Shown here: positions 3,989-7,744 of the stretch, one piece after another | Position numbering within the stretch: position 1 is the first letter of the stretch | How the letters are laid out: every line of letters starts with the position of its first letter | IMG/VR virus record: IMGVR_UViG_2799113093_000010 | From: a virus | Lineage: Duplodnaviria > Heunggongvirae > Uroviricota > Caudoviricetes | Direction: 5' to 3' (one strand) | DNA length: 17,694 nucleotides | The notes under the pieces: model-generated | The model's input: only the letters and a program-made list of their open reading frames with translations | Database searches by the model: none | What the model was told of the DNA's origin: nothing | Position numbers and translations under genes: made by a program

Positions 3989-4002
3989 CCCACGACACGC
4001 AG

Positions 4003-4033
4003 AAGGCCCAGTCCCGGTGCGGGGCTGGGCCTT
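4003..4033. terminator. Hairpin terminator between convergent genes
   Basis: AAGGCCCAGTCCCG-GTG-CGGGGCTGGGCCTT, between stops at 3988 (+) and 4049 (-). Confidence 0.7.
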
Positions 4034-4048
4034 CCGGCTGATGAAGGG

Positions 4049-4387
4049 TTACTCGCTGCGGTACCAATCAGGCTGATACGGGAGCACCAGTTCCGCGAGC
4101 CAGGCCGGCGGCGTCCAGGAGGTCGGCGGCTCGGCACGGGTTGATTCGCCCTCGCCGTTCTTGACGATCCGCGGCCCACCCATGTGGAAGGTGCGCGAGT
4201 AGACGGGTGACGGCCCGCGCCAGGACACCGACCAGCGGCATCGGATATAGGTGATCCGCACCTCGTAGGGCTTCTTGTGGTACGGGCTGCTGGGCAGGCG
4301 GTGCTGGTTGTCCGGCACAGAGAGTGTCACCTCCTCCGTCCGGCCCAGTAGCACCGGTATCGGCACCGGGGTGACGTCCGCGCTCAT
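4049..4387 (-). CDS. Hypothetical protein, 112 aa
   Basis: ATGA-coupled to the upstream gene (4384-4387); ends just before the terminator. Confidence 0.65.
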   Translation of the reverse strand: MSADVTPVPIPVLLGRTEEVTLSVPDNQHRLPSSPYHKKPYEVRITYIRCRWSVSWRGPSPVYSRTFHMGGPRIVKNGEGESTRAEPPTSWTPPAWLAELVLPYQPDWYRSE

Positions 4388-4878
4388 CGGAGTGCCACCA
4401 ACTCCCCGGTATAGCTCGACCCTAGCGAGACTACTGGCGCACGGTGTGGCCCCTGATCTCTCGGCTCATACCAGAACCTGGGCACCGTAACTTGGTCGCC
4501 GACGCTGCACGGCTGGCTGCCCTCCCACACGTAGGCAAGTCTCGATCCATTCACCTCTACCTCGATGATCTGGTGGCCCTCGGCGTCATGTGTTCTGAAC
4601 GCTGCGCGCTCGCAGTCTTCGCGCTCACGACGTCTATGCTTGCTCTCCACCTGTATGGTCTTCGCGGAATAGCCAGAGCTGTAACCGAATTCACGACCAC
4701 GATCAAACGTGGCTGCCAGCACGGCCTCAAGTTCGTCGTCGAACGTGGAGGCGTGCTGCTTGCACGCTTGCCGGAATCCGTGGATCTGGATTCGACATGG
4801 GGTACCGCTGAGAGTGGGCCGACCGCAGAGGCGGTGACTCAGGCGGTCGATATTGATGGTGCGCCCCTCAAGCTTCAT
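4384..4878 (-). CDS. Hypothetical protein with N-terminal Zn-finger-like motif (start moved to 4878)
   Basis: Strong RBS GGAAGGA before ATG 4878; CGRPTLSGTPCR...ACKQH resembles the CGAxTRxGxPC...CxxH (HGGxSTG-type) motif. Confidence 0.7.
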   Translation of the reverse strand: MKLEGRTINIDRLSHRLCGRPTLSGTPCRIQIHGFRQACKQHASTFDDELEAVLAATFDRGREFGYSSGYSAKTIQVESKHRRREREDCERAAFRTHDAEGHQIIEVEVNGSRLAYVWEGSQPCSVGDQVTVPRFWYEPRDQGPHRAPVVSLGSSYTGELVALR

Positions 4879-4900
4879 GGTTGTCCTTCCTATGGATTGG

Positions 4901-4954
4901 CGAGGGCACCAAGCGCGTGAGAGTCGTGTGTCCATGACGCGCTTGGTGCCGTCG
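4901..4954. repeat. Intergenic inverted repeat with 14-bp perfect stem
   Basis: GGCACCAAGCGCGT (4905-4918) / ACGCGCTTGGTGCC (4937-4950), extended by CGA/TCG after one mismatch. Confidence 0.85.
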
Positions 4955-4962
4955 AAGCGTGG

Positions 4963-6147
4963 CTATCGGGCCGCTGCGACCAGCATCGCGTCGACGCCGG
5001 TGGCGGCGAACTCGTTGGAGCGGTCCACGTCCGCGATCTCCTGCGCGTATGAGGTGACGGCGTGCATGATGCCGCCCGCGGTCGGCTGGCCGCCCTTGAT
5101 GAAGTGGGACAGCAAGCCGCTCATCTCGTTCTGGGAGTAGGCGAGCTTCTTGCCGACCACCTCGATCGTCTGTTGCGGGTTGTCCAGCTCGACGCCGCTG
5201 GTTTCCTCCAGCTTGGCGATCGTCTTGGCGACGTACTCGGTGTTCATGTACGAGGCAACCGCGTCCCGGACCTGCTTCTTGACCAGCTCGTTGGCGGCGT
5301 CGATGGTGTCGGTCGACCAGGTGACGGTGCCTTCGTCGAGCTTGCGGCCCAGGTGGATCTTGCGCATCGCGTCGACGTTGATCTGCATGCCGTTGTCGCA
5401 CACCTGCACCCGCAGCTCCGGGGTGATGGTGAGCGCGCCGCCGCCCGTCTCGCTGTTGGTGACCAGCAGCCCGGCGTAGACCAGCTTCGGGTTTTCGGCT
5501 GTTTCGCCGCCGTGGCCGGTGCCCTGGAACGGGGAGCGGTATCCCTCCAGCAGCTTGCCTGCCTGCACCCCGAACTCGGGTGCGGTGACCCGCAGGTAGA
5601 GCCGGTCGTCGGTGAGGTCCGCGCCGCGGATATGGGTGTGGTTCAGCCCGGCCGCGTGCATGCCGTCAAGGAGCGCCATCACGGTGTCGAGGTTGTCGCG
5701 GATCCCATAGCGGTCGGAGAGCACCGCTCGCACTATGCCGCTGGTGCCTGGCTGGTCCGGGTCGCTGCCGGTGAGCATGCGGACCAGGACCTGACGCTTG
5801 GGATCGATACGGGAGGCCAGCGACTCGTAGTTGGTGTCCAGCAGCGGCACGTACTCGGCGCGCAGCTTGCGCACGTACTTGACTGGGATGTCCAGGACGC
5901 CAGCGAGTTGGGAGTCGGCGAGCTGGGTCAGCCCATAGGCCCCGTTGATGTCGGTGACGCCGTCCTCGTTGATCTGAGGGTCGTGGCCCGTCAGGATCAC
6001 GTTTCCGTCGCCGAACCGTAGCTGCCGTACAGGAACGACCAGGTCGAGCTTCTGGGCGTGCTGCTGTTCGAGGAGCGCGATCAGCTTGGGGAGGTCTGCG
6101 TTGCGCAGAGTCCGGGCCGGAATTTCGGGGAGTGTTGGTGCGGACAT
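4963..6147 (-). CDS. DUF932-like phage/plasmid protein (394 aa; start moved to 6147)
   Basis: RBS AGAAAGG before ATG 6147; motifs RAVLSDRY..RDN, GLLVTNSETGGGAL and VCDNGM...H typical of DUF932. Confidence 0.75.
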   Translation of the reverse strand: MSAPTLPEIPARTLRNADLPKLIALLEQQHAQKLDLVVPVRQLRFGDGNVILTGHDPQINEDGVTDINGAYGLTQLADSQLAGVLDIPVKYVRKLRAEYVPLLDTNYESLASRIDPKRQVLVRMLTGSDPDQPGTSGIVRAVLSDRYGIRDNLDTVMALLDGMHAAGLNHTHIRGADLTDDRLYLRVTAPEFGVQAGKLLEGYRSPFQGTGHGGETAENPKLVYAGLLVTNSETGGGALTITPELRVQVCDNGMQINVDAMRKIHLGRKLDEGTVTWSTDTIDAANELVKKQVRDAVASYMNTEYVAKTIAKLEETSGVELDNPQQTIEVVGKKLAYSQNEMSGLLSHFIKGGQPTAGGIMHAVTSYAQEIADVDRSNEFAATGVDAMLVAAAR

Positions 6148-6196
6148 TATGGGTGCCTTTCTAGTTGGCGGTGGGTGTTCGCTAGGCGATATGTTC

Positions 6197-6225
6197 AAGG
6201 TAAAGGCACCTGTACCTTAAATCAA
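6197..6225 (-). promoter_or_regulatory. SigA-like promoter of the DUF932 operon with embedded operator O1 (6200-6215)
   Basis: TTGATT-17 nt-TACCTT on the minus strand; palindrome GTAAAGGCACCTGTAC spans the spacer and the -10. Confidence 0.7.
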
Positions 6226-6290
6226 CTGTGAACAGCATAAATAAGTCACGACAGCCGATAGCCACAACCATCTTTAAGATTGCCGATCGC

Positions 6291-6320
6291 TTGATGTCCA
6301 TAGGTAAAGGCGCCTATACT
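6291..6320 (+). promoter_or_regulatory. SigA-like leaderless promoter of the toxin-like gene with operator O2 (6304-6319)
   Basis: TTGATG-18 nt-TATACT, ATG 6 nt later at 6327; palindrome GTAAAGGCGCCTATAC. Confidence 0.75.
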
Positions 6321-6326
6321 AATGGC

Positions 6327-6575
6327 ATGAGCAAGAGCGAACCGCGCATCACCCGCCCGGCCCGCCGCCACCGCATCGGCGACGCCCACATCCGGGCCGC
6401 TCTCGCGAACGCCGACGACTTCACCATCGACGGAGACATGGTCAAGTACTTCGGCCAGGACGATCGCGGCATCGACATGGAGGTCGGTGTGGTCCCCGAC
6501 AACCGCCGCCCCGGACGCTTCGCGATCATCCACGCCATGCCCCGCAAGTTCCTCATCCCTCGCTCCCAGCGGTGA
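6327..6575 (+). CDS. BrnT/RelE-superfamily-like toxin candidate, 82 aa (start moved to 6327)
   Basis: Pattern ARRHRI...HI..AL...G.DDRG..MEVGVV...IIHAMP.KF recalls small actinobacterial type II ribonuclease-toxin-like proteins; the promoter position supports the start. Confidence 0.6.
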   Translation: MSKSEPRITRPARRHRIGDAHIRAALANADDFTIDGDMVKYFGQDDRGIDMEVGVVPDNRRPGRFAIIHAMPRKFLIPRSQR

Positions 6576-6638
6576 CGCCGGGATTGGGATACAGCGGAGC
6601 GTGGAATGCGGAATCATGAGCCCCCGACAGGAGGATCG

Positions 6639-6785
6639 ATGGAAGAGCCATATGTGATTGATCTGAGCGGGTGGACGCGTCTGCCCGAAGCGGTCCACTA
6701 CGCGGATGTACGGGGGATCGACTTCGGCGATGCGATCCGGGAACTCGTCAATGCCGGCCTGAGTAACTGGAATGGCAACCCGTAG
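6639..6785 (+). CDS. Small protein, 48 aa (MEEPYVIDLSGWTRLPEAVHYADVRGIDFGDAIRELVNAGLSNWNGNP)
   Basis: Below the ORF-track cutoff; perfect AGGAGG SD at 6629-6634, ATG 6639, TAG 6783-6785, followed by a terminator. Confidence 0.65.
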   Translation: MEEPYVIDLSGWTRLPEAVHYADVRGIDFGDAIRELVNAGLSNWNGNP

Positions 6786-6815
6786 AGAAAGCGCACCCGT
6801 GCTGCAGAAACAGGG

Positions 6816-6842
6816 AACCCCCCAAGCTCAGCTTGGGGGGTT
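6816..6842. terminator. Strong hairpin terminator, probably bidirectional
   Basis: AACCCCCCAAGC-TCA-GCTTGGGGGGTT followed by GATTT; lies between the + toxin unit and the - tRNA unit. Confidence 0.8.
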
Positions 6843-6947
6843 GATTTGCATGCGGCGGTGTCCAGAATTAGCAGCCCACGTCTGAAACACCCTTACCGGC
6901 CGTCGGCCACATGCTGCAGTAGACGATACGCCCCGATCAGGGCCTTG

Positions 6948-7020
6948 TGCCACCGGCAGGAGTCGAACCTGCAACCGTCCGCTTAGGAGGCGTCCGCTCT
7001 ATCCGTTGAGCTACGGCGGC
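6948..7020 (-). tRNA. tRNA-Arg(CCT), 73 nt, CCA not encoded, imperfect anticodon stem
   Basis: GCCGCCG-TA-GCTC AACGGATA GAGC-G-GACGC CT CCT AA GCGGA-CGGTT-GCAGG TTCGACT CCTGC-CGGTGGC-A. Acceptor, D and T arms pair; anticodon is the complement of 6985-6987. Confidence 0.85.
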
Positions 7021-7043
7021 ATGCGAGCGGTGCGCTGGAAGCG

Positions 7044-7274
7044 CTATCGGCCGCCCGTCTCGATCCTGTTCACGATCTGCCCGGCTCTGACCTTCGTGAT
7101 TTCGGCTGCTTTCGCCAGCCTGGTCTTCGCGATGCCCATGGCGTCGCCGGTACGGATCAGGTCGTAGATGTGGTCCTGCACGTCTCTCCGCTGCTGGATC
7201 AAGGACTTCTTCTTCTGGCTGGCTGCAGCCAGGTCAGCAAGCAGCTCAAGCCGTTGCTGGGTGTCCTCGTCCAT
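7044..7274 (-). CDS. Small coiled-coil + C-terminal HTH protein, 76 aa (start moved to 7274); candidate repressor/antitoxin
   Basis: MGIAKTRLAKAAEITKVRAGQIV fits a helix-turn-helix; TATACT lies 8 nt before the ATG; stop is 23 nt upstream of the tRNA. Confidence 0.7.
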   Translation of the reverse strand: MDEDTQQRLELLADLAAASQKKKSLIQQRRDVQDHIYDLIRTGDAMGIAKTRLAKAAEITKVRAGQIVNRIETGGR

Positions 7275-7282
7275 AGCGCCAT

Positions 7283-7299
7283 AGTATAGGCGCCTGTAC
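7283..7299 (-). promoter_or_regulatory. -10 TATACT with operator O3 (7284-7299) upstream of the HTH-tRNA unit
   Basis: Minus strand reads GTACAGGCGCCTATACT versus GTAAAGGCGCCTATACT at 6304-6320 (16/17 identical). Confidence 0.75.
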
Positions 7300-7417
7300 C
7301 CCACTCCAAGTGGGAGAACTTGGTGCCCTCCAGGCTGAGCCGCGTGCTCTCCCGGAGTGTGCTGCATCGATCAAGATCCCACTGTAGAGTGCCCGCTAAC
7401 AGTTTGGTCGAGGGGGT

Positions 7418-7744
7418 GTGGTGGCAGGCGACAAAGAGGTGCTCAAGGTCGACCTCGACGCGCTGGGCAAGCTGGGTCCGCATCTGCGGACGCTCGAAGA
7501 GCAGATCACCGCCAGCACTGCGGCCTGCAGCACGACGGCACCGGCGGGTGCTGATCCGGGCCTGGCGGCGCTGTACGGAATGTCGAAAGCCATCGTCGAT
7601 GTCAAGAAGGTCGCCGCTGCTCGGTTGGGGACGATCGCGGACTTCGCCGATGAAGCCCAGAAAGATTTCGCGGTCACGTCCAGTTCGCTGGAGGCCGGTT
7701 TCCGTAACCTGCCCAGCATCTACAAGCCGCCGCTGCAAGCGTAG
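7418..7744 (+). CDS. WXG100-like small ESX (type VII) substrate/partner
   Basis: About 108 aa, helical, LKVDLDALGKL N-terminus typical of mycobacterial ESX partners; directly upstream of the WxG toxin. It has no Trp, so the call rests on size and context. Confidence 0.65.
   Translation: MVAGDKEVLKVDLDALGKLGPHLRTLEEQITASTAACSTTAPAGADPGLAALYGMSKAIVDVKKVAAARLGTIADFADEAQKDFAVTSSSLEAGFRNLPSIYKPPLQA

Follow-up and report, generated by a model that had tools for sequence, protein, structure and literature searches.

The window considered here, that is the whole stretch of 17,694 nucleotides (nt) that was analysed, corresponds to positions 1428-19121 of an 88,683-bp IMG/VR provirus (IMGVR_UViG_2799113093_000010, labelled G000) and carries three copies of a 16-bp dyad, called O1, O2 and O3, each lying in a different predicted promoter. 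The reading favored here, with a probability of roughly 0.68, is that a 76-amino acid (aa) protein encoded behind O3 is a dimeric helix-turn-helix (HTH) repressor of the three sites and a second regulator beside the immunity repressor of the phage. According to the mechanism proposed, the protein would form a dimer, bind the dyad GTAnAGG(Y/R)CCTnTAC and block the host RNA polymerase at three SigA-type promoters: that of its own gene, with a tRNA-Arg gene behind it, which would amount to autorepression; that of a BrnT-like toxin homologue and a 48-aa open reading frame (ORF); and that of an operon headed by a 394-aa gene of the phrog_1362 family. We infer binding, dimer formation and repression as the sign of the regulation from what is observed in the DNA, namely the three sites, the way they are set into promoters and conserved, and an HTH gene that recurs with its own site variant in four phage lineages. 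On this reading the phage has, most likely, a genuine second control circuit of a rather ordinary kind. An HTH repressor acting on a promoter palindrome is a textbook mechanism, placed here on accessory genes and not on immunity.

Copies of the dyad consensus start at positions 6200, 6304 and 7284, and all three are intergenic. The three 16-mers and their dyad symmetry had been reported in the original prediction (6200-6215, 6304-6319 and 7284-7299) and were recovered exactly as placed. At two or fewer mismatches the window holds 3 matches against 0.02 expected (200 shuffles). The statement that the window contains no other intergenic copy was borne out and extends to the whole 88.7-kb provirus, in which no fourth copy was found either at two or fewer mismatches or with the outer arms GTA.AG/CT.TAC alone, the copy number expected from the base composition of the provirus being about 0.001. 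A near-identity DNA search with positions 4000-7420 against GenBank phages gave no match, and a scan of IMG/VR for the exact G000 pattern returned 49 single matches that were judged to be chance occurrences because they are unclustered. GGCGCC and GTAC are common restriction-type short palindromes, and the three copies might on that ground be taken for chance or for a non-regulatory repeat such as recombination- or restriction-type palindromes. This explanation is extremely improbable: it is refuted in practice by the shuffles, by the register of all three intergenic copies with a -35 and a -10, and by their conservation in a related contig (L055, described below) in which the flanks diverge; variants of the dyad also recur at orthologous promoters of other lineages.

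Promoters of SigA type and transcription starts were predicted from sequence geometry, and gene starts were chosen from the ribosome-binding site (RBS) and the reading frame. On the plus strand, the O2 promoter consists of TTGATG (6291-6296), 18 nt and TATACT (6315-6320), followed after 6 nt by the ATG at 6327. On the minus strand, the O3 promoter reads TTGGAG (7304-7309), 17 nt and TACTAT (7281-7286), again with 6 nt before the ATG (7274), and the O1 promoter reads TTGATT (6220-6225), 17 nt and TACCTT (6197-6202), with a predicted leader of about 43 nt that contains GAAAGG and leads to the ATG at 6147. The layout is common to the three sites, with a -35, then 4-7 nt and then the dyad, whose last bases constitute the first half of the -10; the proposed overlap of each palindrome with the -10 of a different transcription unit thus holds by sequence geometry. 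A protein occupying a dyad so placed would be expected to block RNA polymerase. The toxin-like mRNA is predicted to be leaderless because its ATG lies 6 nt past the -10, and the HTH mRNA would be leaderless as well, which makes two of the three units. Leaderless mRNAs are common in mycobacteria. Transcription is predicted to begin at 6327 on the plus strand and at 7274 and about 6190 on the minus strand. Adjoining O3, a second small palindrome, CCCACTCCAAGTGGG (7300-7314), includes the -35 of the HTH promoter and is kept in L055, where as here it might form a hairpin or bind a further protein.

Conservation was assessed against L055, a metagenome contig 94-97% identical to the window. The intergenic DNA between O1 and O2 is 86.5% identical between the two and has a scrambled middle, whereas the -35/operator/-10 blocks are intact. 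Operator changes are confined to two central positions (GGCGCC to GGTGCC and GGCACC to GGTACC), and O1 is conserved except for the central base 8. As only central operator bases differ, the center of the operator appears to be tolerant and its arms constrained. The HTH gene and the toxin-like gene each show 7 synonymous changes and 1 non-synonymous change with respect to L055, the 394-aa gene 31 and 5, and the 48-aa ORF 5 and 3, respectively. These counts point to purifying selection on the HTH gene and suggest that all four are real genes under constraint, the 48-aa ORF being the one with the weakest support. The 164-aa gene (4384-4878) is absent from L055, which is otherwise 89-97% identical, so that it appears as a clean gene-sized indel inside the O1 operon.

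The 76-aa protein matches phrog_686 ('HTH DNA binding protein') weakly (E 1.8e-4). An AlphaFold2 (AF2) model built from a 10-sequence family alignment contains helices at residues 3-45, 50-56 and 61-73, with a mean confidence (pLDDT) of 80.6. The clusters of the AlphaFold database (AFDB) that resemble this model include a resolvase HTH, a transcriptional regulator and sigma-70 region 4 (template modeling (TM) scores of 0.7-0.84, E 0.03-0.1), and its Atlas matches belong to the HTH_7 and HTH_Rpn_C families (TM 0.8-0.9). The protein is accordingly modeled as a helix-turn-helix of the resolvase/sigma-70 region 4 type. Together with the tRNA located 24 nt downstream, the phrog_686 match and the predicted fold agree with the earlier description of this third unit as a small HTH gene followed by tRNA-Arg(CCT), and co-transcription of the two is plausible because the 24-nt gap holds no terminator. 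No match to the protein was found by tblastn against phages, and a word-based search of 5.8 billion proteins returned its own cluster only; its relatives were recognized through synteny and then by pairwise and profile comparison.

One set of relatives lies in Mycobacterium abscessus prophages, one of which, prophiGD43A-5, has been assigned to cluster MabK (PMC8092301). Compared ORF by ORF, the provirus and prophiGD43A-5 show full-length synteny at 40-85% amino acid identity, from which the provirus appears to be a distant relative of the MabK prophages. A search for co-occurrence of motif and genes, which the original prediction had proposed as a check, found a small HTH gene with its own dyad variant and a 394-aa homologue in four phage lineages: G000, MabK, the IMG/VR proviruses L073-L080, and the M. 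smegmatis phages Typha, Bipper and Cracklewink. The HTH proteins are homologous and 68-81 aa long, and in all four lineages the gene starts 7-9 nt behind the palindrome variant of that lineage, so that four HTH lineages correspond to four motif variants. The same variant precedes the 394-aa homologue in 4/4 lineages and the toxin homologue in 3/4, the constant targets being the HTH gene itself and the 394-aa gene. The proposal that the HTH protein represses its own gene is supported because this pairing of gene and palindrome recurs in four lineages.

The MabK variant is GTATAG-N4-CTATAC, with 6 copies each in prophiGD43A-5 and prophiT37-1. These sites precede the 394-aa homologue, a 105-aa ORF, a BrnT-like toxin/antitoxin pair, a divergent secreted ORF, gp55 and a 73-aa gene (gp109/gp102). 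The promoters have the same architecture as in G000 (e.g., TCGACA-17-TACGTT and TTGCCT-18-TACATT), and in 4 MabK units the ATG lies 7-10 nt past the palindrome. The 73-aa gp109 starts 7 nt behind a site and aligns with the 76-aa protein without gaps over the helix-turn-helix (pairwise E 9e-5), both proteins matching phrog_686. In L073, a 68-aa protein similar to the 76-aa protein (E 3e-6) is encoded 8 nt behind GTAAAGCGGGCTATAC, and the 394-aa gene, with GTAAAGCGCGCTATAC, follows directly after the HTH gene; the variant of this lineage, GTAAAG-CGNG-CTATAC, has only 2 sites in the complete 75-kb genome, before the HTH gene and the adjacent 394-aa gene. In Typha, Cracklewink and Bipper, a 77-81-aa HTH homologue starts 8 nt behind a site (Typha gp37 against the 76-aa protein: blastp E 1e-6, hhalign probability 90.8%). 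The motif GTCTAGTGAGCTATAA occurs in 9 copies per genome in Typha and Cracklewink, against 0 for a control pattern, and stands in front of the homologues of the toxin and of the 394-aa protein as well as a number of right-arm genes, and the site before the HTH gene of Bipper and Cracklewink is a perfect palindrome, GTCTAGAGAGCTAGAC. A Logan contig, L065, carries a toxin homologue 69% identical to that of the window and two hybrid sites, GTATAGCGGACTAGAC and GTCTAGTGCGCTATAC. The pairing does not extend to Myrna (cluster C), whose gp249 is a distant HTH match located inside an operon and without its own promoter.

The HTH gene keeps its own site despite its shifting position, which may be on either side of a polymorphic-toxin cassette or immediately ahead of the 394-aa gene. 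Between the HTH operon and the toxin gene there is a conserved tRNA slot with exchangeable cargo, filled by tRNA-Arg(CCT) in the window (6947-7020), by tRNA-Arg(TCT) and tRNA-Met in Typha (L070 7375-7527) and by tRNA-Met in Bipper (L090 2869-2943) and L065 (7873-7948). A HicB-domain gene of 215 aa stands opposite the toxin homologue in L065 (7969-8846, minus strand), together with the tRNA-Met and, upstream of the HicB gene, a 76-aa gene that is possibly HicA. The assumption that the toxin/tRNA/DUF932 composition had no described counterpart has to be given up in part of its meaning: the composition is not unique and represents the three-site version of a circuit that has from 2 to at least 9 sites in related phages. 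Neither the G000 nor the MabK motif string was found in the literature searched, and the papers on the MabK prophages mention no palindrome, inverted repeat, operator or conserved repeat for MabK (PMC8092301; PMC9934374).

No site of the family is present in the repressor/excise switch region of G000, prophiGD43A-5 or prophiT37-1, where TGCGCA-type repeats are found instead; operators of an immunity repressor of the BPs type were rejected as an identity for the sites for this reason. By its position the circuit appears to be separate from immunity control and to govern accessory genes instead. A more ambitious version, in which the HTH protein and its operators form an immunity-independent switch that silences the prophage cargo as a unit and releases it upon a signal such as superinfection or stress, is rather improbable. 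The cargo so silenced would comprise the BrnT-like toxin, the tRNA and the phrog_1362 operon and, in the relatives, secreted proteins. The joint release upon phage attack or stress put forward in the original prediction is speculative, as is any role in defence.

Several observations weigh against the HTH protein as a repressor of these sites. The AF2 model obtained from the single sequence has two long helices and no turn, and it was superseded by the family-alignment model; a Foldseek comparison with the PDB gave HTH regulators in all of its best rows but at E > 0.1; and phmmer against 1.84 billion representatives returned the protein itself and one coiled-coil match, with no relative. HTH proteins of different lineages show weak homology, with 19-38% identity and pairwise E values of 1e-4 to 1e-6. 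There are only four lineage/motif pairs, which are phylogenetically non-independent, and as the four lineages are related phages, their shared synteny could be inherited and not functional. In addition, the 394-aa protein accompanies the motif as consistently as the HTH protein does, the product of the 48-aa ORF may itself be DNA-binding, and the motif of Typha and Cracklewink has a strong orientation and incomplete symmetry, as might equally be expected of a promoter element.

Some of these points lend themselves to another binder, be it the 48-aa protein or a toxin-antitoxin pair to which it belongs, the immunity repressor, the 394-aa protein or a host regulator, and the HTH gene would then simply be one of the regulated genes. 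Type II antitoxins bind palindromes in their own promoters, and the 48-aa ORF shows weak ribbon-helix-helix (RHH) leads; yet the toxin homologues of Typha and L065 have no downstream partner ORF, the L073 lineage has the sites and no toxin gene within the 15-kb locus examined, and the MabK antitoxin is unrelated to the 48-aa ORF. The absence of sites from the immunity switch regions likewise argues against the immunity repressor. The 394-aa gene stands alongside the motif in every lineage, but its product, in which no DNA-binding domain is recognized, retains 56-73% identity from one lineage to another, in contrast to the marked changes in the motif. All lineages have the outer half-site GT..AG in common, as a conserved host factor might require, but the motif is not constant among phages that infect one host species, and this speaks against a single host factor. 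A binder other than the HTH protein is therefore considered unlikely.

It is also doubtful that the dyad is a promoter element, either as a spacer/-10 module spread by duplication or as a site where an HTH protein resembling sigma region 4 activates or redirects RNA polymerase. The right arm of the dyad does supply the -10, GTCTAGTGAGCTATAA of Typha and Cracklewink is oriented with transcription and symmetric at 4/6 arm positions, certain distant HTH homologues carry a sigma-factor annotation in other phages, and the fold matches of the 76-aa protein include sigma-70 region 4. The left arm, on the other hand, lies at about -30 to -18, where there is no conserved SigA element, and is nevertheless conserved like the right arm, and the sites before the HTH genes are the most symmetric ones. 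The flanks of the three G000 sites are unrelated to one another, and the sites are therefore not simple duplications of a promoter. Usable -35 and -10 hexamers are present without any helper, the 76-aa protein lacks a sigma region 2, and repressors classically sit on a site that covers the spacer and the -10. Repression by the HTH protein accordingly remains the preferred reading for the three promoters.

The coordinates of the features of the locus are collected in Table 1. The right-hand neighbors of the locus are a WXG100-like gene and a polymorphic toxin of 776 aa whose tip is a GH-E nuclease; on the left stand a DUF732 gene and tyrosine integrases.

Table 1. Operators, genes and other elements of the locus (window positions)
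Feature	Position	Strand	Sequence	Description
O1	6200-6215		GTAAAGGCACCTGTAC	palindrome occupying spacer and initial 3 nt of the -10 in the minus-strand promoter ahead of the 394-aa operon
O2	6304-6319		GTAAAGGCGCCTATAC	palindrome within the toxin-like gene promoter TTGATG-18-TATACT
O3	7284-7299		GTATAGGCGCCTGTAC	palindrome within the minus-strand HTH gene promoter TTGGAG-17-TACTAT; ATG 9 nt past the palindrome
Proposed repressor gene, 76 aa	7044-7274	-		long N-terminal helix and C-terminal helix-turn-helix (predicted)
tRNA-Arg(CCT)	6947-7020	-		24 nt 3' of the HTH stop codon
Toxin-like gene, 82 aa	6327-6575	+		homologous to phage proteins annotated BrnT-like
48-aa ORF	6639-6785	+		GGAGGA ribosome-binding site; 63 nt downstream of the toxin-like gene
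GC-rich hairpin, 12-bp stem	6816-6842			two-way terminator separating the toxin operon from the HTH/tRNA unit
394-aa gene	4963-6147	-		phrog_1362; first gene of the O1 operon
164-aa gene	4384-4878	-		same O1 operon; no family match
112-aa gene	4049-4387	-		last gene of the O1 operon

The 394-aa protein belongs firmly to phrog_1362 (function unknown; E 7e-98) and has homologues in 244 phage records, mostly of mycobacteriophages. The original prediction had spoken of a DUF932 operon, a name that was not supported: even at E 10, neither hmmscan nor a search of the provirus in six frames returned a match to Pfam DUF932 (PF06067). In the Atlas clusters to which language-model features bring the protein closest (score 0.97), no more than 16-30% of members have DUF932; for this reason, and because the Pfam model gave no match, DUF932 is regarded as a distant lead and not as a membership. 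The 394-aa query gave nothing in the related-locus search of viral contigs, nor did its alignment against genome contigs. The toxin candidate fared better in one respect than in another. The 82-aa protein matches phrog_36779 'toxin' (E 3e-9), is 36% identical to prophiGD43A-5 gp50 'BrnT-like toxin' (E 2e-10) and is related to Typha gp42 (tblastn E 1e-6), and its Atlas features point to toxin, DUF4258 and BrnT clusters, so that homology to phage proteins called BrnT-like, names which are annotations and not assays, can be added to the proposal; the Pfam BrnT_toxin model (PF04365), in contrast, gave no match at E 10. The 48-aa ORF, also present in L055 and in L067, is possibly an RHH antitoxin and the putative partner of the toxin-like protein. 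PADLOC gave no match among seven locus proteins and NCBIfam none for the locus proteins, and a sequence search of solved structures returned nothing meaningful for the 394-aa, toxin-like or HTH protein.

Among the closest comparable systems, the MabK set of sites shares with G000 the 16-bp layout, the outer half-site core, the position in a SigA-type promoter, a homologous small HTH gene, predicted leaderless, behind a site, and the orthologous targets, namely the 394-aa gene and the BrnT-like toxin. The two differ in that positions 7/10 are G/C in G000 and C/T and G/A in MabK, position 4 being variable in G000; in the number of sites (three in G000, six in MabK); in the toxin gene, which in G000 has moved beside the attachment-proximal cargo region; and in the HTH gene, which in G000 is found across the polymorphic-toxin cassette from its MabK position and has a tRNA behind it. 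The lambdoid cI/Cro and BPs gp33-type operators are dyads of 12-17 bp placed over the -35/-10, bound by an HTH protein whose own gene is among those controlled. The G000 sites resemble them in that the dyads overlap the promoter, the protein is of the HTH class and the regulator gene would itself be controlled, as proposed here. Unlike those operators, which act at the lysis-lysogeny switch, sites of the G000 type are absent from the switch and stand before accessory genes, and the 76-aa protein has no sequence relation to the lambdoid or BPs repressors.

The stoperators of cluster A (L5/Bxb1) and MabJ phages are a further case of a repressor site dispersed in many copies over a mycobacteriophage genome, those of MabJ having been described in prophages (PMC9934374). 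Stoperators are asymmetric, 13-14 bp long, located inside transcribed regions, oriented with transcription and bound by the immunity repressor, whereas the G000-type sites are symmetric, lie in promoter cores and are unlinked to immunity; symmetry and promoter-core position rule out that the G000 sites are stoperators. In cluster O mycobacteriophages, a 17-bp palindrome, TGTTCGGNNNCCGAACA, occurs in more than 30 copies per genome, with no binding protein named, and was described apart from the predicted SigA promoters (PMC4351075). This palindrome is, like that of G000, a repeated dyad with a variable center and invariant arms and mostly intergenic, but its sequence is unrelated to the G000 dyad. 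Lastly, the autoregulation of type II toxin-antitoxin systems (BrnT/BrnA) also places a palindrome in the promoter of a toxin-first two-gene cassette. The G000 palindrome, unlike that of type II systems, is found in addition in front of genes unrelated to the cassette, within their promoters and that of a separate HTH gene, and it persists in lineages whose toxin homologue has no partner ORF.

Temperate mycobacteriophages carry accessory genes such as toxins, secreted proteins, tRNAs and defence genes, whose control in the lysogen is largely unknown. The circuit allows a candidate regulator to be named for a family of accessory promoters in MabK-like prophages of M. abscessus and in the experimentally convenient M. 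smegmatis phages Typha, Bipper and Cracklewink, where it lends itself particularly well to testing, and it offers a handle on the timing of expression of the 394-aa phrog_1362 gene, a constant target without known function. Mycobacterial genetics could use the four natural operator/regulator variants as a set of orthogonal repressor-promoter pairs. If the silencing of prophage cargo as a unit turned out to be true, M. smegmatis phages and M. abscessus prophages would have in common a conserved regulon for defence or conversion that can be derepressed.

Additional observations were made in the related phages. In prophiGD43A-5, an unannotated ORF of about 113 aa (L060 2917-3255, plus strand; MW584167 ~25416-25754) has a signal-peptide-like N-terminus, MKSLYVKRIAVMGAAISALTTLPTATASA, and is predicted to be leaderless behind GTATAGCTCTGTATAC, upstream of a tRNA-Thr(TGT); prophiT37-1 has the same ORF but no tRNA there. 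The 105-aa ORF at L053 4545-4862 (plus strand), with an RBS, a palindrome promoter and a T-rich terminator, corresponds to gene 107 of prophiT37-1, a plus-strand gene in its annotation; prophiGD43A-5 gp114, at the same place, is annotated on the minus strand, which looks like a strand error in the record. The leader of this 105-aa gene (L053 4506-4544) and that of the 394-aa gene in the window (6148-6199) have AGCGAACACC in common, which suggests that in the G000 lineage the 105-aa gene and a second promoter were deleted and the 105-aa promoter became fused to the 394-aa gene. The closest 394-aa homologue (83%) is accompanied, at L072 760-835, by a different dyad, GGAAAGAAAACTTTAC, preceded by GGAAAGTTTTAC and located between an integrase gene and an 89-aa ORF; it may be a fifth operator variant. 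No RNA run containing this prophage was found, and two pure-culture RNA runs with its species label gave 0 reads on the stretch and so say nothing on its expression. Finally, biofilm metagenome runs contain 21-61% of the sampled words of window positions 4000-7500, and two wastewater 'RNA-Seq' runs, probably of DNA, yielded no more than short pieces of contigs, 90-99% identical to it; the prophage may thus have relatives outside clinical isolates.

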